DNA from: Patescibacteria group bacterium
GTDB lineage: Bacteria > Patescibacteriota > Minisyncoccia > Phycocordibacterales > Phycocordibacteraceae
DNA length: 64,000 nucleotides
Direction of reading: 5' to 3'
NCBI GenBank assembly: GCA_038064695.1
Contig: JBBTSO010000001.1
Span: 85,932-149,931 of the forward strand
Numbering within the stretch: position 1 is the stretch's first letter; every line of letters begins with the position of its first letter. The notes under the pieces are model-generated. The model saw nothing but the letters and a program-made list of their open reading frames with translations, was not told where the DNA came from and ran no database searches. Positions 970 to 32,735 of this stretch are shown piece after piece. A program made the position numbers and the translations under genes.

Positions 970-3364
970 AAAACAAAAGCCGATTTTGGTCTTGATTGAC
1001 TCCCACGCCATTATTCACCGTGCGTACCACGCGCTTCCTGAGTTGACTGACTCTAAAGGAAACCCTGCGGGTGCTTTGTATGGACTCGCCTCAATGTTGG
1101 TGAAGTTGATAAAAGAGCTCAAACCCGAACACATTGTGGCCGCGTATGACTTGGCAGGCCCCACGCACCGCCACGAAGTGTATGAAGACTACAAAGGCAC
1201 GCGTGCAAAAACAGACGACGCGCTCATTGCGCAGCTAGATCGTTCGCGTGATATTTTTGCCGCGTTCCACATTCCTATTTATGAAGCAAAAGGGTTTGAG
1301 GCAGACGACATTATTGGGACTCTCGCCACCACATTAAAAAAAGAATTTGACGTCGTTGTTGCTTCGGGCGATATGGACACGGTACAGTTGGTGGACGATG
1401 TAGGCGTGCGTGTCTTTACTCTTCGCAAAGGCCTTAACGACACCGTGATGTACGACGAGGCGGCGGTTATGGCGCGTTACGGGTTTGCGCCCGAGTTTAT
1501 TCCCGACTACAAAGGGTTTGCAGGCGATGCTTCCGACAACATCATCGGCATTTCTGGTATTGGCGAAAAAACGGCGACAAAACTCATTCAGGCGTACGGA
1601 AGTGTTGAGAATATTTACAAAGCGTTAGAAAAAAAACCGGAAGAATTTAAAGAAAAGACAGGGGTCACCGAGCGCGTTTTTAACTTGCTTCGCGACAACC
1701 AAGAAGAAGCTGAGTTTTCAAAAGTACTCGCCACTATACGCACCGATGCCCCCGTGGCGTTTGATGAAGAAGAAGCACACTGGCAAAAGAATTTTAGTAC
1801 TGACGCCGCAAAAAAACTTTTCACGGAACTTGGATTCAGGTCGTTGATCGCAAGAGTTGAGACTCTTGTGACAGGAAACAGTGATGAAGGGTCAGTAAAG
1901 AGTGAGAAAAAAGAACAGTTAGAAAAAACTGATGATTTGTCACCAATTCCTGTATACACCGCGGATTCCTTGCTTGCCAAGGAATCCGCGGTGATGCTCT
2001 GGCTTTTGCAGTCGGAAACCACAAACCCCTCTGTGGAAGATGTGCTCAACAACACGGACTCAAAAACATTAGAAGAAGCACACGAAAAACTGCTCCGTGA
2101 CCTCAAAAAAGAAAACCTTTTAGATATTTACGAGCGTATTGAAAAACCACTCGTTCGTGTGTTGGACGTAATGAACGCAAACGGTGTGTTAATTGACGCG
2201 CCGTATTTAAAAAATCTCTCCAAGGAGTACCACAAAGAGTTAGACGCGCTCGCAAAAGCGATTTTCAAAAAAGCAGGAAAAGAATTTAATATCAACTCAC
2301 CGAAACAGTTAGGCGAAGTGTTGTTCGTGCATATGGGTATCAAGCAGGCACGCGCGAAGAAAACCTCTACCGGCCAACTTTCTACCAAAGAGTCAGAACT
2401 TTTAAAACTTAAAGATGAAAACCCGATCATTGCTGACATTCTGGCGTACCGAGAACTCCAAAAACTACTTTCTACCTACATCGACGCTATTCCACCGCTT
2501 TTGGGCGAAGACGGTCGTTTGCATACCACCTTTATTCAAACAGGGGCGGCAACAGGCAGACTTGCCTCGCAAAACCCTGGGGTTCAGAATATCCCCGTCA
2601 AAACTGAGTTAGGGCGACGTATTCGTGGTGGGTTCGTTGCTCCAAAGGGCTCGGTGTTACTCGCGCTTGATTACTCGCAAATAGAGCTTCGCCTCGCCGC
2701 CATTCTTTCAGGGGACGAAAAGTTGAAACAGATTTTTATAAACGGGGAGGACGTACACACCGCCGTTGCCGCACGCGTGTTTGGCGTGGCGCCTGACGCA
2801 GTTGAGTATGAAATGAGACGCAGAGCAAAGGTCATTAACTTCGGCATTTTGTACGGTATGGGGGTGAATGCGCTTCGGGAACAGCTGGGAACGACCCGTG
2901 AGGACGCGCAGGCATTTCTTACGCGCTACTTTGAAACCTTTACGGAACTTGAGGCATACCTCACGAAAACAAAAGCAACCGCCACACGCCTCGGGTATAC
3001 CACCACCCTCTTCGGGCGAAAACGATTTTTCCCCGGACTCAAATCAAAACTCCCGTTCGTGCGCGCCTCATCCGAACGTATGGCGATTAACGCGCCCATG
3101 CAGGGGAGTCAGGCAGATATGATCAAACTCGCAATGGTTAATATCCAGGAGCGTATAGAAAAAGATTTTGCCGATACGGTGAAAATGGTACTTCAAATTC
3201 ACGACGAATTGATATTTGAAGTGAAAGACGACGCACTTTCTGTATTCACCCCCATCGCGCGGCATTTGATGGAGTCGGTACTGTCTAAAGAAGACGCGCA
3301 GGGCGTGCCCATTATTGTTTCAAGCGAAGCCGGTCCTTCGTGGGGGGAAATGAAGAGTATATAG
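962..3364 (+). CDS. polA: DNA polymerase I: 5'-3' exonuclease plus polymerase domains, 3'-5' exonuclease domain reduced
   Basis: Family A polymerase motifs DYSQIELR, RRRAKVINFGILYGM and QIHDELIFE. N-terminal FEN-like domain present. Start taken at ATG 962 (MPKKQKP) rather than 938, which overlaps tsaE. Confidence 0.93.
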   Translation: MPKKQKPILVLIDSHAIIHRAYHALPELTDSKGNPAGALYGLASMLVKLIKELKPEHIVAAYDLAGPTHRHEVYEDYKGTRAKTDDALIAQLDRSRDIFAAFHIPIYEAKGFEADDIIGTLATTLKKEFDVVVASGDMDTVQLVDDVGVRVFTLRKGLNDTVMYDEAAVMARYGFAPEFIPDYKGFAGDASDNIIGISGIGEKTATKLIQAYGSVENIYKALEKKPEEFKEKTGVTERVFNLLRDNQEEAEFSKVLATIRTDAPVAFDEEEAHWQKNFSTDAAKKLFTELGFRSLIARVETLVTGNSDEGSVKSEKKEQLEKTDDLSPIPVYTADSLLAKESAVMLWLLQSETTNPSVEDVLNNTDSKTLEEAHEKLLRDLKKENLLDIYERIEKPLVRVLDVMNANGVLIDAPYLKNLSKEYHKELDALAKAIFKKAGKEFNINSPKQLGEVLFVHMGIKQARAKKTSTGQLSTKESELLKLKDENPIIADILAYRELQKLLSTYIDAIPPLLGEDGRLHTTFIQTGAATGRLASQNPGVQNIPVKTELGRRIRGGFVAPKGSVLLALDYSQIELRLAAILSGDEKLKQIFINGEDVHTAVAARVFGVAPDAVEYEMRRRAKVINFGILYGMGVNALREQLGTTREDAQAFLTRYFETFTELEAYLTKTKATATRLGYTTTLFGRKRFFPGLKSKLPFVRASSERMAINAPMQGSQADMIKLAMVNIQERIEKDFADTVKMVLQIHDELIFEVKDDALSVFTPIARHLMESVLSKEDAQGVPIIVSSEAGPSWGEMKSI

Positions 3365-3390
3365 TATTTTGTATAGAGTATTTAGTATGG
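3363..3390. repeat. heptad-periodic ATACTNN array (inverted copy) abutting the start codon of the IVS-family gene
   Basis: Reverse complement reads atactaa-atactct-atacaaa-atactat. It pairs with the direct copy at 3761-3790. Confidence 0.6.
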
Positions 3391-3755
3391 GAATCAAACA
3401 TTTCTCAGAACTCGATGCTTGGAAGAAAGGGCACACGCTCGTTCTTCTTGTCTACGAATATACAAAAAATTTTCCTGATGATGAGCGGTTCGGTCTAGTT
3501 AATCAAATGCGCAGAGCTGCCGTATCAATTACCTCAAATATTGCCGAAGGCTTTGGAAGAACAACCATCAACGATAAAGTACATTTCTATACCATGGCAA
3601 AGACGTCGCTTTCAGAGATTGAAAACCAAATGCTAATAGCCAAAGACCTTGACTACGTGGCCACAAATATCTATGAGCAATTTAAAACTCTGGTCGATGA
3701 AGAACATCGCCTCCTGGGGGGTCTAATGAAATCGGCACGTTCAAAAACGCACTAA
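3387..3755 (+). CDS. four-helix-bundle protein of the 23S rRNA intervening-sequence family
   Basis: About 120 aa helical protein (GIKHFSELDAWKKGH...MRRAAVSITSNIAEGFGR) typical of the TIGR02436-like family. ATG at 3387 preferred over TTG at 3369. Confidence 0.7.
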   Translation: MGIKHFSELDAWKKGHTLVLLVYEYTKNFPDDERFGLVNQMRRAAVSITSNIAEGFGRTTINDKVHFYTMAKTSLSEIENQMLIAKDLDYVATNIYEQFKTLVDEEHRLLGGLMKSARSKTH

Positions 3756-3760
3756 TGCTC

Positions 3761-3790
3761 GATACTAAATACTGAATACTCTATACTGTG
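3761..3790. repeat. heptad-periodic ATACTNN array (direct copy) upstream of the holA-like start
   Basis: gatactaaatactgaatactctatactgtg gives four 7-bp repeats of ATACTNN and is the inverted partner of 3363-3390. Confidence 0.6.
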
Positions 3791-4839: not shown

Positions 4840-4985
4840 ATAAAAAGTATAACAAAAATAGGAAACGTCTCATAACGCTCCGACCCGGACTTTGTCGTCA
4901 CGAATAATTACTCGTCAGCCCTCGTAATTTTCGCGACCCCGGCTCACGGTCTCGTCTGCTGACTCGACATCGTTCCGCCTCGGAC

Positions 4986-5016
4986 AAAATCATAAAACCT
5001 GCCGCAGGGCAGGTGT
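4986..5016 (-). terminator. intrinsic terminator downstream of tRNA-Lys
   Basis: In the minus sense the sequence reads cctgcc-ctgc-ggcagg followed by ttttatgatttt. Confidence 0.55.
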
Positions 5017-6223: not shown

Positions 6224-6257
6224 CAGTATAGAGTATTGAGTATAAAGTATACAGTAT
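6224..6257. repeat. heptad-periodic ATACTNN array filling the 37-bp divergent spacer between DoxX and trmH
   Basis: Reverse complement reads atactgt-atacttt-atactca-atactct-atactg. Both flanking genes start within 8 bp of the array. Confidence 0.6.
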
Positions 6258-6828: not shown

Positions 6829-7821
6829 TTAGTAATCCACCGAGTCAATCACTAAGCCGTTTTCATCAAGCAAGCGAATGCGCTCGCGAGTGTTTTTCCA
6901 TAGCTCTTGGTCGCGGTCTAGGTAAATGCGCCACTCATTGTCATAAAAGTTTGTCTCGTTTTTGTACGCGGCCACACAGGCGCTATAGGTGAGGTCTTCC
7001 AAAATAAAGTTTCGACACTGCCCACCAATATTTTGGGGGATTTCGCTCAGGGTACTGCGACACCGCGGAATATTTTCTACAAAGCTAATGCATGCTTCAC
7101 TTGGTACAAAACTTGCCGTGATGGTGTCTGCGAGCACGTCTTCGGGTGCAGGGCACGCTTCTTCAAGGTCGGGTTCAAAGGCTTGGAACTGCGCAAAGTA
7201 GCCGGTGCACACGTTGGTGCGGAATGAGGTGCCAATAGGGGAGCGTCCTGTTACTACATAGATGGTGCTGCCGGGCGAAACCGCCACCGGAGATTCCACG
7301 TTCACCTGCCCCGAATAGGGAAGGTACGCAGCGTTCCCCAACGTTACTCCGAGCGTTGAAACCGTTGAATCAAGACGCCACGATGAAACAACCAGTCGAT
7401 CAGAAATATTTTTTCCAATTTTGATGGTGACATACTCTCCTTCGGGGTCAGTGTCACGAGCTCGTCCGATGCTCAAAGAAACGTCATTCGCGTAGGGGGA
7501 GGTAGATTCATTTATTTCTCCAAATCCGCTTCGAATTCTTTTAATAATACTGTCCAGTGAGTTTTCGGCGTCACGGTCACGGTCGGTGAGATTGGATTCA
7601 CTCGATTCAGGAATGGTGACCCCCGGAATCCCAAAGTCGGTGAGTGAGTACCCCGTTTCATTTCCTAGAGGGAAGGGAGGATTAAGGAAGGGTCCTGAAC
7701 GCGAGATGGCTCGGTCAGGGCCTCCCGTTAACGCCCACACAATTCCAAGCACGACTAAAAAAAAGATAAAAAATAAGAGATCAGTACCAGCGCCACCCTT
7801 TGGTTGTTTCATGGTATGCAT
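6829..7821 (-). CDS. membrane-anchored extracellular protein, possible lamin-tail-like domain
   Basis: N-terminal TM helix (LLFFIFFLVVLGIVW). The GEYVTIKIGKN...LVVSSWRLDS region resembles an LTD fold. No close family recognised. Confidence 0.4.
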   Translation of the reverse strand: MHTMKQPKGGAGTDLLFFIFFLVVLGIVWALTGGPDRAISRSGPFLNPPFPLGNETGYSLTDFGIPGVTIPESSESNLTDRDRDAENSLDSIIKRIRSGFGEINESTSPYANDVSLSIGRARDTDPEGEYVTIKIGKNISDRLVVSSWRLDSTVSTLGVTLGNAAYLPYSGQVNVESPVAVSPGSTIYVVTGRSPIGTSFRTNVCTGYFAQFQAFEPDLEEACPAPEDVLADTITASFVPSEACISFVENIPRCRSTLSEIPQNIGGQCRNFILEDLTYSACVAAYKNETNFYDNEWRIYLDRDQELWKNTRERIRLLDENGLVIDSVDY

Positions 7822-8642
7822 TATACCCTCGTCCAGTGGTCATCAAACGCATCTTCCATAAACCCTGCGATTGCCTGATTTTCAACCATAACTCCCACGT
7901 TATCTTTAAAAGAGAAGAGATATATACGGTTCCCGATCAAATAAATGCCAGCGTTCTGTTCGTCGATGTCGAGATGTTTAATGTCACGTCCCAGTCGTGT
8001 TGACTCGTCGGTGATACGAAAGTCGTCGGGACCTTTCGCAATAAAAAGTTTAGTGATAACCCCCATCGCACTTCGTTTCTTCAAAAATGAACGGATATAC
8101 TCTTCGAGTCCACGTGTTTCCGCAAGAAAGTTGACTCCATATCCGCGAAACCGTTTGTACTTTCCGCGCCTATAGAGGTCAAGCATACTGTCAAATAAGT
8201 GTTCAAGTCCGAGCGACCCTTCATAGTACGTAACGGAGGGAAGTGCAGTGATATTTGACTCGAGGGCTACAGAAGGGGAGAGCCCCGTCTCCAGTGATCG
8301 TTCGATACGTTTGAGTCGTGACTGTTCGTTTTTTATAAATCGGGCAAGGTGGCGATAATCACACACAAAATAACGAATGCCTCCGCGTACAGTTGACGTT
8401 ACTAATCCTTGCTCGCCGAATCGTTTTAAAATGGAATACACCGTTTGACGTGGCTCATCGGTTTTCTTTCCAATGATTGATGCCCGCGCACTTTTTTCTT
8501 CAAGTAACGCCAACGCCACTTTTACTTCCCGTTTTGAAAAGCGAAGGGCAGTCAAAATATCCTCAACATTACCGAAGTCAAAAACGGCTTTACTTCTGAC
8601 CATATCACCATATATACCATAAGTGACGAAAAAATTCGTCAC
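7821..8642 (-). CDS. TrmB-family transcriptional regulator
   Basis: N-terminal wHTH (TVYSILKRFGEQGLVT) plus a C-terminal TrmB-like domain. Confidence 0.5.
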   Translation of the reverse strand: MTNFFVTYGIYGDMVRSKAVFDFGNVEDILTALRFSKREVKVALALLEEKSARASIIGKKTDEPRQTVYSILKRFGEQGLVTSTVRGGIRYFVCDYRHLARFIKNEQSRLKRIERSLETGLSPSVALESNITALPSVTYYEGSLGLEHLFDSMLDLYRRGKYKRFRGYGVNFLAETRGLEEYIRSFLKKRSAMGVITKLFIAKGPDDFRITDESTRLGRDIKHLDIDEQNAGIYLIGNRIYLFSFKDNVGVMVENQAIAGFMEDAFDDHWTRV

Positions 8643-10977: not shown

Positions 10978-11049
10978 AAAGACAGTATAGAGCACTCCGC
11001 ACTCATCATTCAGTGCCAGTGCGGTTCAAACAAAAATGCTGATTTCCTT

Positions 11050-11077
11050 GATACTTTATACTGAATACCGTATACTG
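11050..11077. repeat. heptad-periodic ATACTNN array upstream of rpsT
   Basis: gatactttatactgaataccgtatactg matches 3761-3790 at 22 of 26 positions. It ends 10 bp before the rpsT ATG. Confidence 0.6.
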
Positions 11078-17107: not shown

Positions 17108-17201
17108 TGATGGACTTTACTCTCTCCCGGCGTTTGTTGTCAAATAACTACTAATTTTTTGTGGTCACGAGTCACTAAGTATTTCAAACGCTCTCGGTAC
17201 C

Positions 17202-17335
17202 TGCGGGCCGAGCATTATACCCTCGGTCATTGGCATGCAAGCACGCCATGACCCTCGTGTGTGCTCTCGGTAACTAACGTTGCCGATTCGCACAACTTCA
17301 AAAATACTGAAGCAAGCTTCGTATTTTGTTCAGTT
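17202..17335 (-). repeat. additional tandem copies of the tRNA-Arg(GCG) 3' end separated by long hairpins
   Basis: gctctcggta-type copies at about 17202 and 17264. A 17-bp-stem hairpin (cacaacttcaaaaatac...gtattttgttcagttgtg) lies between copies. Confidence 0.5.
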
Positions 17336-17498
17336 GTGCTCTCGGTAGGAAGTGTCTTGTGTAAGACACAAGCACGCATCGGTCACGGATAATTTTCTGC
17401 TAAAAATTTCCGCGACCCGACAAAAGCGACGGCAGGCAGTTTTTGTCCCTGCATAGACAGGTGAGGCGCCGTCGCGCCTCCGGTTTTCGATTCCTACC
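17336..17498 (-). mobile_element. miniature tRNA-3'-end-associated element (copy at the tRNA-Arg-GCG locus)
   Basis: In the tRNA sense it starts ggtaggaatcgaaaaccggag, an inverted copy of the cognate T-loop region. It ends gacacttcct followed by taccgagagcac, a direct repeat of the tRNA 3' acceptor. It contains the ~75 bp core shared with 28033-28105. Confidence 0.55.
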
Positions 17499-20878: not shown

Positions 20879-20967
20879 TGGCGGAGGCGGTGAGATTCGA
20901 ACTCACGGTACCGTAAAGGTACGGCGCATTTCAAGTGCGCTGGAATAAACCACTATCCGACGCCTCC
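20879..20967 (-). tRNA. tRNA-Ser (anticodon TGA), CCA encoded
   Basis: Reverse complement gives acceptor GGAGGCG/CGCCTCC, anticodon stem GCGCA/TGCGC with loop CTTGAAA, a long variable arm, T arm GAGTTCGAATCTC and a 3' GCCA. Confidence 0.85.
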
Positions 20968-20972
20968 CTAGC

Positions 20973-21452
20973 CTAGTGAGATAGTTTACCACCTAACCAA
21001 CTTTTTTCCAGGTAGTGTTCTTCATAGTGACAATTGGGACAAATGAGTTCAAGATTTAGAAGATCATTGTTACTCCGGTCGCGGTCTTTATGGTGCACGT
21101 GTAAAATTTCTTTTCGACTATACTGGCATCGCTCACACTCTACTCCACGTAGCTGGAGTAGTCGGATTTTTAGAGCTCGTTGTGTTGCCACTTTATCTTT
21201 TGGTCTACCAATATGGTATTTAATGCCAGCTCTATTTTTATTTGCGCAGCTTCGGCTACAAGTTTTTTTATGAAGTTGGGCGAGAATAGGTTTTTCACAT
21301 ATCACACAAGGTTTTTCTTTTCGTTGAGCTTGCGCGTAGCATTTCTGGCCACAAAATACGCGTCCGCGTTTAATTTCACTCGGTCTCCGGTATATCTTTG
21401 TCCCACAAACACTACATCCAATATTAGGATTTCTTTTGTACGATGTGTTCAC
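20973..21452 (-). CDS. HNH endonuclease with N-terminal zinc-ribbon repeats
   Basis: HVHHKDRDRSNNDLLNLELICPNCH (HNH motif) and four CxxC pairs in the N-terminal part. The stop codon lies 6 bp from the tRNA-Ser 5' end. Confidence 0.7.
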   Translation of the reverse strand: MNTSYKRNPNIGCSVCGTKIYRRPSEIKRGRVFCGQKCYAQAQRKEKPCVICEKPILAQLHKKTCSRSCANKNRAGIKYHIGRPKDKVATQRALKIRLLQLRGVECERCQYSRKEILHVHHKDRDRSNNDLLNLELICPNCHYEEHYLEKSWLGGKLSH

Positions 21453-27838: not shown

Positions 27839-27867
27839 GGTATCAATAATGGTATTATCGGCACATT

Positions 27868-27940
27868 GGCCCCGTAGTTTAATGGATAAAACAGGAGACT
27901 TCTAAGCTCTTGATCCAGGTTCGATTCCTGGAGGGGCCAC
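27868..27940 (+). tRNA. tRNA-Arg (anticodon TCT)
   Basis: Acceptor GGCCCCG, D arm GTTTAATGGATAAAAC, anticodon loop CTTCTAA and T arm CCAGGTTCGATTCCTGG. One mismatch at 31-39 and one at 7-66. Confidence 0.8.
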
Positions 27941-27948
27941 CCGCATAA

Positions 27949-27992: not shown

Positions 27993-28116
27993 GGCCAGGA
28001 ATCGAAAACCGGAGATGCGACGGCATCGAGGTGGGGTCGCGGAATTTTTCAGCAGAAAAATATCCGTGACCGATGCGTGCTTATGTTTTATATAAGACAC
28101 TTCCTGGCGGGGCCAC
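27993..28116 (+). mobile_element. miniature tRNA-3'-end-associated element (copy at the tRNA-Arg-TCT locus)
   Basis: Starts ggccaggaatcgaaaaccggag, an inverted copy of the tRNA T-loop/3' stem. Contains the ~75 bp core at 28033-28105. Ends acttcctggcggggccac, a direct repeat of the tRNA 3' end ttcctggaggggccac. Confidence 0.55.
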
Positions 28117-28826
28117 TAAAGCACTATTTCTTTTTTCTCTCTGAGTAGGCGGATACCGAGGTAGGAGAGCGGGGTATACAAGAAACCCATCGCTACCTTA
28201 AAGAGCCACCACGTAATAATAATGCTAATGAGCGTGTTGGTGTCGTAGACTCCCAAAAATGCAATGAGCATAAAAATGACCGTGTCTAAAAGTTGAGACC
28301 ATGTGTTTGAAAGGAATGAGCGAAGCCAAAATAATTTTGCGCCGAATTTTTCTCGAAAAAAGAAAAACGACACTACGTCTTGATACTCTGCAATTAAAAA
28401 CGCCGCGAGCGACGCTACGGCAATGCGAAGCGAAATACCAAATACTTGGTTGTACCCGTTGTGCACCCACTCACCACTTTCTGCCCAGGGAAGCGCGAGC
28501 GAAAGTAGTGAGAATGCAATAAAGAGTGCCGTACTTATAAACCCCGCAAACACAAACAGTTTTGCGATGCGTTTTCCGTACACTTCACCAATAACGTCGG
28601 TCATTAAGAATACGATAGGGAATGAAAACACCGCCACCGAGAGGTGTGAACCAAACAAAAAAGGCATTATTTTTAGCCCGAGCGTGTTTGCGGCAAAAAG
28701 CGCTGTGAGGTACACCGTGAGTGCAATACCAAGGTTGCGAATGGAGCGTTCGGAGAGTTCAGGCATAGTGAATGAAAACAGTATGCCACAGAGAAACAAT
28801 AAGCCGAACATTCTTTTTGCGGTCAC
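28116..28826 (-). CDS. YhhQ-family (queuosine-precursor transporter-like) membrane protein
   Basis: VFSFPIVFLMTDVIGEVYGKR resembles the YhhQ/DUF165 signature. Six TM helices. Confidence 0.55.
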   Translation of the reverse strand: MTAKRMFGLLFLCGILFSFTMPELSERSIRNLGIALTVYLTALFAANTLGLKIMPFLFGSHLSVAVFSFPIVFLMTDVIGEVYGKRIAKLFVFAGFISTALFIAFSLLSLALPWAESGEWVHNGYNQVFGISLRIAVASLAAFLIAEYQDVVSFFFFREKFGAKLFWLRSFLSNTWSQLLDTVIFMLIAFLGVYDTNTLISIIITWWLFKVAMGFLYTPLSYLGIRLLREKKEIVL

Positions 28827-29062
28827 AATTCTTTATTTTGTGGTCACCCGGCGCTGAGAGACTTGGTCAAGCGCTCGTTCGGCGTATAAAACAATGAGCC
28901 GAACATTCTTTATGTGGTCACTCGTCACTAAGTATTTTTCTTCCTGTTGTCGAAAAATACTAAGTGCGTTCGACCCCGCCTCGCGGTCGCGTGCTTCACG
29001 CGACATCACTCCGGCCCCCACAAAGCAAAAAACCGGTACGCAGGTACCGATTTTTGTCTTTG

Positions 29063-31243: not shown

Positions 31244-31371
31244 CACGTATGCGGGCCGGAGCCATGTTTTCCGTTTCGGAAAACGGGCGAGGAGGGGTCA
31301 CAACCGAGGCGAACGACGGTAAGCCGAGAGTTGTGACCACACGGCGATAAATCCGCATCCCGCTTCTTCAT

Positions 31372-31444
31372 GGTGGCTATGGTGTAACGGTTAACACTGG
31401 AGCTTGTGGAGCTCTCGATCAGGGTTCGATTCCCTGTAGCCACC
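31372..31444 (+). tRNA. tRNA-His (anticodon GTG) with genomically encoded G-1
   Basis: GGTGGCTA...TAGCCACC gives an 8-bp acceptor including G-1. Anticodon loop TTGTGGA, T arm CAGGGTTCGATTCCCTG. Confidence 0.85.
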
Positions 31445-31507
31445 CAGAATAATAAAATTCCGCGCGTGCGGGTTTTTTATTGCTCTGGGGGCTAAACGAG
31501 CAAATTG

Positions 31508-31627
31508 TTTTGCTCGTGTTGGGAATCGAAAGTCGGAGCCATGTCGCTTGCGACAGGTGAGACCGGGTAGGAGCCACTTAACGAGTGTGGCGAGTTTAGT
31601 GAGCTGGCGCCGATTCCCTGTAGCCAC
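31508..31627 (+). mobile_element. miniature tRNA-3'-end-associated element (copy at the tRNA-His locus)
   Basis: Starts gggaatcgaaagtcggag, an inverted copy of the tRNA T-loop region. Ends ccgattccctgtagccaccca, a direct repeat of the tRNA-His 3' end. Confidence 0.5.
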
Positions 31628-31655
31628 CCATTTTGTACGTTATAGTTTGAGTAAC

Positions 31656-32735
31656 GTGAAAAGTTTTTTTGAGTTACTGGAGAGATACAAACAACGCCTT
31701 CCTACCGTTGCGCTGGTGGTTGGTTTCGTTGTTGACATCATTACCTTTCGAAATCTTAACCTCTTCTACTCGCAAATTATCCTTGCAACACACCTTGCCA
31801 TTGTGGCGTTTTCAATTTTGATTATCGCGCTTCCCGTAAAAGCTGCTCGAGACTCATTTTTTATGAAAGTGCGGTCATGGCTACCAGTTGCACAGCAGTA
31901 TTCAACGGGTAACCTTCTCTCTGCGTATGTGGTGTTGTACTCAGCGAGCGCCTCAATCGTGAACAGTTGGATATTTTTTGCGCTCCTTGCGCTCAGCGTG
32001 TTAGGAAATGAACTCTTCAAATTAAAGAAGTATCAACTATCTTTCAACACCTCGCTCTTCTTTTTAAACCTGCTGCTCTTCTTTGCTCTAGCGCTTCCGA
32101 TTGTGGTGGGTTCAATTTCAGTAGCGACTTTCTTGCTCGCGTTGATTGCCGGTGCGGTTGTTTTTCAGATTTTTCAATGGATTCTCAGATTCGTGGCGAA
32201 AGAGGTTTTTTTGCGAAACCGCAAAGGCATTCACCGCGGCGCGCAATTCGTGTTTGTGTTCCTTACCGTTCTTTATTTTTTGAACATCATTCCACCTATT
32301 CCGCTTTCACTCAAAGTTGCTGATTTTTATCACCGCGTAGAAAAGGTAGGAAGCGAGTATGTGGCGTACGACGAACCGCGCGGGTTTTTTGAACATTTTT
32401 TTACCGTGCAGGGGAAAACGCTCCGCCTTGCGCAAGGTGAAGACGCATACCTCTTTAGTGCCGTTTTTGCTCCGGCGCGCATCGACGCGAACATCGTTCA
32501 CCGGTGGGAGTTTTTTGACCTGACCTCTGGGCAGTGGCATGCAAAAAATGAAGTAGGGTTCTCTATTGTAGGAGGGCGAGACTTAGGGTATAGAGTATTT
32601 TCTTATACCGAAGACCCCGTGCCTGGCAGGTGGCGGGTATCGGTTGCGACCACCAAAGGTCAGGTGATCGGGCGAGCGTATGTTTTTGTTGAGCGCGTAA
32701 ATACGCCGCCCCTCTTAGAAAGTTTTCAACAGTAA
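31656..32735 (+). CDS. multi-pass membrane protein with a C-terminal soluble domain (hypothetical)
   Basis: The listed ORF starts inside the tRNA-His 3'-end repeat, so it is trimmed to the in-frame GTG at 31656. Six to eight TM helices. Confidence 0.45.
   Translation: MKSFFELLERYKQRLPTVALVVGFVVDIITFRNLNLFYSQIILATHLAIVAFSILIIALPVKAARDSFFMKVRSWLPVAQQYSTGNLLSAYVVLYSASASIVNSWIFFALLALSVLGNELFKLKKYQLSFNTSLFFLNLLLFFALALPIVVGSISVATFLLALIAGAVVFQIFQWILRFVAKEVFLRNRKGIHRGAQFVFVFLTVLYFLNIIPPIPLSLKVADFYHRVEKVGSEYVAYDEPRGFFEHFFTVQGKTLRLAQGEDAYLFSAVFAPARIDANIVHRWEFFDLTSGQWHAKNEVGFSIVGGRDLGYRVFSYTEDPVPGRWRVSVATTKGQVIGRAYVFVERVNTPPLLESFQQ

Follow-up and report, generated by a model that had tools for sequence, protein, structure and literature searches.

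Genomic islands and prophages that integrate at transfer RNA (tRNA) genes leave the tRNA 3' end duplicated as a direct repeat whose start is in the T loop, and the T-loop position C56 is reportedly classic for tRNA-targeting integrases. The repeat passes the gene by a few bases and the tRNA stays intact. Transfer-messenger RNA (tmRNA) genes are used as well, and tandem accumulation leaves displaced 3' ends. The same features are seen in a family of elements described here, one of which lies 3' of the tRNA-His gene in a 64,000-nt stretch of a Patescibacteria genome (GCA_038064695.1, contig JBBTSO010000001.1, positions 85,932–149,931; the whole stretch is hereafter called the window). The element differs from islands and prophages in being ~100 nt long, in lacking integrase and cargo, and in having an extra, inverted copy of the target. 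Also unlike them, its interior is a conserved folded module found across Patescibacteria classes.

The tRNA-His(GTG) gene occupies positions 31373–31445 on the forward strand (ARAGORN; 61.5 bits with the Rfam tRNA model), with G-1 at 31372 and without a fully encoded CCA. Its 3' end from C56, CGATTCCCTGTAGCCACCCA, is the first copy (A1, 31427–31446, forward strand) of an exact 20-mer. The second copy (A2) lies at 31611–31630 on the same strand, where the 3' strand of P1, CGATTCCC, runs into the duplicated tRNA-His end. Past CGATTCCC, A2 duplicates the 3' strand of the T-stem, the 3' strand of the acceptor stem and the discriminator. The 20-mer is present twice against 0.00 chance repeats expected, and the interval from A1 to A2 is ~165 nt. 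An earlier note on this DNA had reported a 22-bp direct repeat at 31607–31627 and an inverted T-loop match at 31508–31525. The repeat is exact but is the 20-mer given above, and the inverted sequence exists but lies at 31522–31538 (GGAATCGAAAGTCGGAG; 31521–31538 with the 5' G). The coordinates in that note were in general 1–14 nt too low, and its sequence content was correct. The 17-mer GGAATCGAAANNCGGAG has three matches in the window against 0.23 expected, each downstream of a tRNA. The other two sites (17478–17494 on the reverse strand and 27998–28014 on the forward strand) each follow a tRNA-Arg gene.

From the end of the tRNA onward, the parts are arranged as follows, all on the forward strand. 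A terminator-like trailer hairpin (31447–31485; stem 31459–31472 plus a T run; terminator scan) comes first, and is 78% identical in the orthologous locus L042. Together with 31486–31494 it makes up a long imperfect palindrome that takes in the acceptor 3' strand of the tRNA. The sequence at 31486–31494, TGGGGGCTA, resembles an acceptor 5' strand, and in the minimum-free-energy fold of 31484–31632 it pairs with TAGCCACCCA at 31621–31630, one A being bulged. The hairpin H, CGAGCAAATTGTTTTGCTCG (31497–31516; consensus GAGCAAAYTGNTTTGCTC), is present in the fold and is a recurrent module of the long subtype, with stems that covary over many loci, for example GCCAA/TTGGC, GAACAAA/TTTGTTC and GCAAT/ATTGC. 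Next is a', the 5' strand of P1, TGGGAATCG (31520–31528), which is the reverse complement of the T-loop/T-stem positions 56–63 of tRNA-His. Covariance-model alignment places J1/2 (AAAG) and P2 at 31529–31563, and J2/3 (CGGG) and the variable arm P3 at 31564–31610. P2 of the His copy consists of a short covarying stem G-N-C/G-N'-C, the internal loop GGAG/(U)GA and the P2b hairpin CCATGTCGCTTGCGACAGG. Its P3 is of 'type B', in which GGGTAGGAGCC...GAGCTGGCGCC replaces GGGGTCG...GTGACC, and it shows many compensatory changes relative to the L042 ortholog. The predicted fold of 31484–31632 has an energy of -62.7 kcal/mol (z = -3.84) and includes the acceptor-like helix, H, P1, P2 and P3; the core alone has a fold energy like that of shuffled sequence (z = -0.9).

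A covariance model trained solely on copies from other genomes was run on the window. It matches the His copy at 31518–31621 on the forward strand with 53.8 bits (E = 1.5e-11), and the match spans the internal core. The sequence 3' of tRNA-His is therefore a member of a repeat family with tRNA-derived ends, as had been proposed. The similarity among the copies is not confined to these ends, and the two tRNA-Arg copies score 71.4 (TCT) and 44.1 (GCG) bits. The family had been counted as three; it is real but was undercounted, as the window contains six copies, five with model E-values from 1.5e-6 to 5.5e-16 and one divergent. Six of the seven tRNA genes in the window bear a copy (Lys, Arg-GCG, Arg-TCT, Val, Leu, and His), and tRNA-Ser(TGA) is the only one without. 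The motif GCGAC(A)GG, claimed to be shared by three copies, is located in the P2b hairpin, but in differing registers (in the His copy it forms the 3' strand of the stem, whereas in the Arg copies it covers both stem and loop), and the likeness is loose. The motif CGGAGCCATGT, noted also upstream of the tRNA, is found at 31257–31267 and 31534–31544, but this repeat alone is insignificant, as 15 of 100 shuffles reach two matches. The upstream site is within the divergent copy (type C) between tRNA-Leu and tRNA-His.

Throughout the family, in which each element measures about 90–150 nt, the core is composed of AAAG, P2 with the GGAG/CGA internal loop, GG(GG), and the variable arm P3 ending in GTGAC, and it forms a three-way junction on the tRNA strand. 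The paired boxes are P1 and the conserved base of P3 (GGUCG/UGACC, with a G.U pair), and the distal part of P3 ranges from ~20 to 170 nt. In an alignment of 120 distinct sequences, which was fitted to the model and so favours the structure, paired cells reach 89.7% compared with 78.4% in shuffles, and changes on both sides are seen in 17 of 21 pairs (336 cells against 123 expected). None of 500 shuffles reaches the observed values, and the signal is gone when the partners are slid by 1–3 columns. The middle pair of P2a, for instance, is CG in 56, AU in 29, GC in 26 and UA in 5 sequences, and two pairs of P3 switch among AU, GC and CG. The covariation picture is the same in an independent MAFFT alignment made from 21 copies. 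The G.U pair at the base of P3, which corresponds to a C.A mismatch on the opposite strand, is kept in 108 of the 120 sequences. This indicates that the fold is specific to the tRNA-sense strand.

The ends of the element match the neighbouring tRNA or tmRNA. They had been called tRNA-derived; this is correct, and more fully they fit the particular tRNA immediately upstream. In 68 of 110 loci, the strand a' agrees with at least 9 of the 10 positions 56–65 in the tRNA that it follows; against other tRNA types, this holds for 12%. The spacer belonging to the element contains a complement of the acceptor 3' strand in 36 of 110 loci, whereas controls have one in 2.6%. Over the 18 positions 56–73, A2 has the same base as the tRNA throughout in 37 of 117 non-redundant pairs, and 95 pairs agree at no fewer than 12 positions. 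The duplicated segment is 8–50 nt long and starts at C56 or at the tRNA 3' end. In L042, the T loop of tRNA-His is TTCAATT, and this change (G57A) is mirrored in both a' (GGAATTG) and A2 (CAATTCC).

The gene order in L042 is the same as in the window: tRNA-Leu, type C element, tRNA-His, type B element, and the DUF2914 gene, whose proteins are 62% identical between the two. In seven flanking orthologous genes, the third codon positions are 39–53% identical, or 44–60% within identical amino acids; synonymous sites are saturated. The identity between the window and L042 is 93% for the type C element, 85% for hairpin H, 81% for the His core and 85% for A2, and it is 86.5% for tRNA-His. Since neutral sites are saturated while the elements are 81–93% identical, the elements are about as conserved as tRNA, and this sequence comparison shows purifying selection comparable to that on tRNA. 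The substitutions in L042 are either compensatory or A-to-G changes that retain G.U pairing on the sense strand. In P1 of the type C copy, G-C becomes A-U. In its P3, TCACAAC is changed to TCGCGAC opposite an unchanged GTTGTGA, which gives G.U pairs on the sense strand only. The trailer hairpin of tRNA-Leu carries two double compensatory changes. These structure-preserving differences suggest that the element functions on the tRNA-sense strand, most simply as RNA.

A motif scan with one genome per species returned 41 loci. Approximately 28 of them are in Patescibacteria (Saccharibacteria, Paceibacteria/Parcubacteria, Collierbacteria, and WWE3). The remaining 13 are inside open reading frames (ORFs) of GC-rich genomes, have no other features and are by estimate about as many as expected by chance. 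A metagenome scan returned at least 120 loci. Among the matches listed from Patescibacteria genomes and metagenomes, 175 covariance-model matches were tabulated. A same-strand tRNA is present within 300 nt upstream in 129 of the 175, with a median gap of 53 nt, and 13 are at the edge of a locus, where this cannot be judged. Among the others, the preceding gene is a tmRNA in at least 8 cases and, in one, a tRNA that carries a group I intron. The tRNAs bearing the element represent at least 17 amino-acid specificities. The family is widespread and restricted to Patescibacteria, in which it amounts to hundreds of copies. Complete copies are all 85–130 nt long and none has an ORF inside, and this length rules out cargo within the variable arm. 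Two subtypes can be distinguished: a 'long' one with H and the acceptor-5' strand, such as the His copy, and a 'short' one of ~80 nt with the generic GGAATCG only.

With the 4227 models of Rfam 15, both at the gathering threshold and at E ≤ 10, the elements in the window and the copy at L018 match no family. The Rfam tRNA model (RF00005) and ARAGORN detect only the seven true tRNAs in the window, and nothing over 31447–31632 even at E ≤ 10. The catalytic core models of Rfam leave the elements unmatched, in a search which picked up the group I intron in L084. Resemblances to the hammerhead, the K-turn, the 'AAAG' guide of IS200/IS605, antisense-tRNA and group II domain V were considered by eye, and none of them fits. 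The motif is found in 0 viral contigs, and blastn against phages and plasmids gave no match. No integrase, transposase or reverse transcriptase was found near ~150 loci or among the ~30 ORFs scanned in the window. What Pfam searches identified among the cargo and neighbour genes of L004 and L019, and among the ~30 ORFs of the window, was limited to UDG, toxin-antitoxin-like and housekeeping genes. When 928 ORFs of the ~150 loci were clustered all against all, only syntenic housekeeping neighbours emerged.

The family shows duplicative, decaying population dynamics. The element is absent from the orthologous tRNA-His loci of L044, L046, and L047, and the copy between tRNA-Leu and tRNA-His is absent from L038. 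Cores at different tRNAs of the same genome are 100% (L084), 94% (L005), 88% (L037) or 85% (L010) identical, whereas the median of the background is 62%. The shared part of the L005 pair is exactly AAAG..GTGAC, and a' and A2 each fit their own tRNA. This pattern could be due either to recent copying of the core between loci or to gene conversion between cores. Tandem arrays are seen at L005, L020, L102, and L016.

Some copies have unusual settings. In L084, the tRNA-Ser(UGA) gene at 3341–3498 (reverse strand; Rfam tRNA 37.1 bits) has an element inside its T loop as an 80-nt insert, and the core of this copy is 100% identical to that of the copy after the intact tRNA-Ser(CGA), 840 nt away. The same locus contains a group I intron in a tRNA gene missed by ARAGORN (7812–8057, forward strand), followed by an element copy at 8190–8301. 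In L136 (773–960, reverse strand), tRNA-Thr(GGT) has a partial duplicate upstream, and an element core sits in this duplicate between its D and anticodon arms, which mirrors the usual arrangement. In L019 (256–4066), 3.8 kb with genes for malic enzyme and a MacB-like ABC transporter separates tRNA-Glu from its element and is bounded by the 10-bp repeat GGCTACCAAA; the near-identical locus L010 (1302–1343) is without this insert. The tRNA-Glu(CTC) array of L004 (2300–6190, reverse strand) contains several copies, each closed by a tRNA 3' end, which bracket ~3.2 kb with a UDG-family gene and unknown ORFs but no integrase. Past this array are a SocA/Panacea antitoxin-like gene and a winged-helix gene (helix-turn-helix, HTH) with a weak AbiEi-like match.

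The chances appear to be about even that the element is a selected, structured RNA of the sense strand that presents or masks the 3'-end sequence of its cognate tRNA. Such an RNA, transcribed from the tRNA strand, would offer a mimic of the cognate tRNA 3' end, or its complement, to a factor common to tRNA and tmRNA biology. Candidate roles are 3'-end processing, CCA addition, surveillance, and repair. New copies would arise duplicatively at tRNA 3' ends, where the target sequence would be copied and decaying older copies would be left downstream. As a whole, the long subtype resembles the cognate tRNA's acceptor/T-arm half, the junction standing where the T loop would be.

The known structures closest to this picture are the tRNA-like mimics, namely the tRNA-like domain of tmRNA, the external guide sequences of RNase P and the viral tRNA-like structures. 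As in these, the long subtype has an acceptor-like helix that is continuous with a T-stem-like helix and has the cognate discriminator end, and one side hairpin replaces the D and anticodon arms. The differences are that the T loop is a three-way junction, that the elbow is absent, and that the stacked helix has 17–19 bp compared with 12 in tRNA. The acceptor helix of the element often reaches over the discriminator and the trailer. Besides, there is one element per tRNA gene, not per genome, and the Rfam tRNA and tmRNA models are unmatched.

Several observations weigh against an RNA that presents or masks the tRNA end. Of 117 copies, 22 have a degenerate A2. Where its sequence departs from that of A1, A1 pairs better with the 5' half of the tRNA in 31 cases and A2 in 1; A2 therefore drifts, and its acceptor part is not always maintained. 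Only the long subtype fits the tRNA-mimic picture fully, and the short subtype is without the acceptor-5' strand. In 53 of 116 loci, tRNA and element are separated by a terminator-like hairpin followed by a T run; in only 20 of 116 does one come after the element, and no promoter was seen for the element itself. Transcription would therefore need read-through, unless the hairpin is a processing stem. No partner protein recurs near the loci examined. Copies cut down to their 5' half, 3' ends left as orphans and loss of the element from relatives are dynamics like those of selfish DNA.

It is also conceivable, although unlikely, that the element is a dedicated partner RNA of each tRNA or tmRNA, with a conserved protein-binding junction and a strand complementary to the last ~20 nt of the cognate tRNA, which a copy of this end would mask in cis. 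Two known systems are similar in part. In the primer-binding site of retroelements, as in a' plus the acceptor-5'-like strand, the sequence is complementary to the last ~20 nt of a specific tRNA, and tRF-3, a 3' tRNA fragment cut in the T loop, corresponds to the sequence of A2. The element differs from both: it has no reverse transcriptase or long terminal repeats, and its complement is broken by H and paired in cis with the target mimic. If true, the partner RNA could guide or template tRNA 3'-end repair, resynthesis, or targeted processing, or capture 3' fragments. Such a per-tRNA guide system would be without known precedent.

The alternative is a structure-guided mobile element that rebuilds the direct and the inverted target copy at each insertion. 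The main rival of the RNA reading, and a less probable one, is that the element is a miniature mobile element at the DNA level, whose fold in single-stranded DNA (ssDNA) would be a structure-specific recombination site like the attC site of integrons or the folded attP of CTX phage. P1 and the base of P3 would be the recombinase boxes, the rest of P3 the variable terminal structure, and the recombinase would be encoded elsewhere. Exchange at GTGAC|C56 would put a circle (A + spacer + a' + core) into the T loop, and this insertion would restore the tRNA or tmRNA gene and push the original 3' end to A2. The start of the direct repeats at C56 is consistent with this, and tmRNA genes are also targeted. 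There are tandem A-B-A-B' arrays, as well as rows of displaced tRNA 3' ends from several generations, and cores 94–100% identical are found at different tRNAs with an A2 fitting the local one. The presence of the element varies among orthologous loci, and A2 decays. The accessory block of 3.2 kb in L004 is bracketed by copies. The fold is on the tRNA-sense strand, and since tRNA genes usually point with replication, this is usually the lagging-strand template.

The resemblance to attC and CTX attP extends to a length of 60–140 nt, a structure conserved beyond the sequence, a fold of one strand, and tandem arrays sometimes with genes between the copies. In both, a 5' inverse core pairs with a 3' core that runs into target-derived sequence, and a second conserved box lies at the base of a variable terminal arm. 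However, the core sites RYYYAAC and GTTRRRY of attC are absent, the ends of the element being GGAATCG/CGATTCC or other tRNA-derived sequence, there is no adjacent intI, and nearly all copies are empty. The equivalent of 'attI' would be dozens of tRNA genes, and the target identity is 17–50 nt. The extra P2 branch with its invariant GGAG/CGA loop is more elaborate than known recombination sites. Strong purifying selection in vertical orthologs is a further difference: conservation of 81–93% with compensatory or wobble-preserving changes is not expected of a resident selfish site unless it is constantly used.

Other points also speak against a mobile DNA element. The enzymes that would be expected, integrase, transposase or reverse transcriptase, do not recur near the loci or in the window, and the element, at 85–130 nt, has no internal cargo. 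Even where two cores are 94% identical, each a' fits its local tRNA, and simple insertion fails to explain this. Compared with MITEs (miniature inverted-repeat transposable elements) and the REP/BIME repeats (repetitive extragenic palindromes and the mosaic elements built of them), the element is likewise short, non-coding and multicopy, with terminal inverted repeats and hairpin potential, and it has similar copies within a genome as well as decayed or truncated ones. It differs in being found only 3' of tRNA and tmRNA genes, in that its 'terminal repeats' are locus-specific target copies, and in that it is a multi-helix covarying junction with conserved unpaired bases and conservation like that of functional RNA. 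Unlike a MITE, it has neither inverted ends common to all copies nor a target-site duplication of fixed length. The RNA reading and the reading as an ssDNA recombination site are not mutually exclusive.

It is very unlikely that the element is an intervening sequence of the T loop, in which A2 is the true 3' exon and the element plus A1 are removed from the precursor RNA. The L084 copy that interrupts the tRNA-Ser(UGA) T loop, where an intact upstream copy is missing, has this arrangement, and Patescibacteria are rich in tRNA introns (PMC13011429). However, only 1–2 of the ~175 copies interrupt a tRNA; otherwise a complete tRNA precedes the element. The junction in L084 is without U55, so that precise excision gives an abnormal T loop. 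The core is far too small for a group I or II intron, and it matches no ribozyme family.

The two copies of the tRNA-His 3' end could be regarded as the attL and attR of a nearly deleted, integrase-borne element, that is, as a scar left by a prophage or genomic island. Direct duplication of a tRNA 3' end from the T loop onward, here over 20 nt, is a typical remnant, and L019 has a separate insertion of 3.8 kb at the end of tRNA-Glu with a 10-bp repeat. The 165-nt interior is nonetheless a homologous, covarying and conserved compact module, present at 20 or more tRNA species plus tmRNA and at hundreds of loci, without integrase, and no viral contig, phage or plasmid matches it. Deletions that arose independently would not all end in one structure of 100 nt, and a scar is effectively refuted. 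Chance resemblance, or plain reuse of a common T-loop sequence, is refuted even more firmly: GGTTCGATTCC occurs in most tRNAs, short matches to this sequence or its complement are common, and the repeat of CGGAGCCATGT means little by itself, but the counts of the 17-mer and the 20-mer, the E-values of the model and the covariation controls are not accounted for.

The other copies in the window vary in the way their ends are built. The copy after tRNA-Lys(TTT) (4887–4992, reverse strand) scores 41.2 bits (E = 2.3e-8). Its P1 consists of the descending arm of the trailer hairpin and the copied tRNA 3' end plus trailer, GACAAAGTCC; in both the Lys and the Val copy, the closing helix is built from the extreme 3' end of the tRNA plus the trailer, not from the T loop. 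The copy after tRNA-Arg(GCG) (17335–17498, reverse strand; model match 17498–17371; fold z = -6.5) has the order a' GTAGGAATCG, core, extra hairpin, and A2 TTCCTACCGAGAGCACA (17351–17335), with a 41-nt insertion in P2. Older remnants lie 3' of it (17156–17273, reverse strand), seen in the sequence and in the repeat families D9 and D13. They are copies of the tRNA-Arg 3' end at 17273–17260 and 17199–17190, and an orphan 3' fragment of P3, AAATACTTAGTGACTCGTGACCACAAAAA (17184–17156). The tRNA 3' end is thus present four times in a row at this locus, with the orphan P3 end in addition.

The copy after tRNA-Arg(TCT) (27994–28116, forward strand; model match 27994–28081; E = 5.5e-16; fold z = -4.95) has the order a' CCAGGAATCG, core, GTGACCGAT (28066–28074), extra hairpin (28075–28100), and A2 TTCCTGGCGGGGCCAC (28101–28116). 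The tRNA-Arg(TCT) itself (27867–27942) has a G7.A66 mismatch in the acceptor stem (Rfam register), and A2 at 28101–28116 has C there and would pair perfectly. The idea derived from this locus, that the displaced A2 is the better acceptor strand, is not general, as it is better in 1 of 58 differing pairs.

The copy after tRNA-Val(TAC) (29029–28906 within the region 28794–29029, reverse strand; repeat families D9 and D12) scores 34.1 bits (E = 1.5e-6). Behind it come a partial duplicate of the tRNA-Val 3' end and another two 'GTGACC + ACAAAA...' ends, so that there are three 'GTGACC...' ends overall. The three repeats of GTGACC + ACAAAA(T)AAAGAATGTTCGGCTNATTGTTT (28794–28937) lie between the tRNA-Val element and the start codon of a Vut_1/YhhQ-type transporter gene (28116–28826, reverse strand), and they can be read as probable remnants of the element. 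Rfam detected no preQ1 riboswitch in this region upstream of the transporter gene. The type C copy between tRNA-Leu and tRNA-His (31245–31360, forward strand) is matched weakly at 31249–31342 (13.5 bits, E = 0.25). Its P1 is ATGCGG/CCGCAT, and it includes CCGGAGCCATGT. The ortholog in L042 (3602–3695) has a model E-value of 0.0016, and the P3 type is also present in L004.

Downstream of the His copy and outside the element lies a DUF2914 membrane-protein gene (31656–32735, forward strand; Pfam) with a GTG start. The earlier note had put the start at 31656, and this agrees with the 359-aa product, for which a Patescibacteria metagenome-assembled genome has an identical deposited DUF2914 protein; homologs have 352–364 aa. 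The ORF from 31548 overlaps the element and is spurious.

An HNH-endonuclease-like ORF (20973–21452, reverse strand) abuts the 5' side of tRNA-Ser(TGA) (20879–20967, reverse strand), which, besides being without an element, is the only tRNA in the window with an encoded CCA. In L046, an HNH ORF (2364–2864) is likewise followed by a tRNA-His (2866–2942) without an element. ORFs of ~220–240 aa are located a few bases from the 5' end of Leu, Gly, Arg, Ile, and Trp tRNA genes. They include a LAGLIDADG-like pair (L042 2811–3473 and L038 3403–4044) and ORFs with an N-terminal HTH (L064 611–1336, L037 3641–4306, L084 7015–7704, and others in L120, L128, L151, L065, and L078), two sets with no detectable mutual similarity. 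These ORFs look like free-standing homing-endonuclease-type genes associated with tRNA genes. The HTH plus LAGLIDADG-like family and the HNH genes 5' of some tRNAs were considered as a linked factor and rejected, as the loci are too few. A 14-nt unit, GTATAGAGTATTNAGTAT / ATACTGAATACTCTATACTG, occurs in direct and inverted orientation in intergenic regions at 3357–3388, 3742–3788, 6224–6257, and 11031–11077, and an ATACT-rich repeat like it is found upstream of tRNA-Glu in L040.

Literature full-text searches returned no description of the element, although an account elsewhere is possible, and the family is apparently undescribed. The closest paper (PMC13011429) deals with group I introns located at position 35/36, which are unrelated.

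The Patescibacteria (Candidate Phyla Radiation) are a large and mostly uncultured share of bacteria with very small genomes. The element family yields false ORFs (here 31548–32735) and calls of tRNA fragments, and would be worth modelling in annotation pipelines. The matching to each tRNA provides a testable handle, as an element predicts its partner and can base-pair with the 3' end of that partner. A module present at six of seven tRNAs, with conservation like that of tRNA, implies either unrecognised tRNA/tmRNA biology or a new route by which tRNA genes are colonised.

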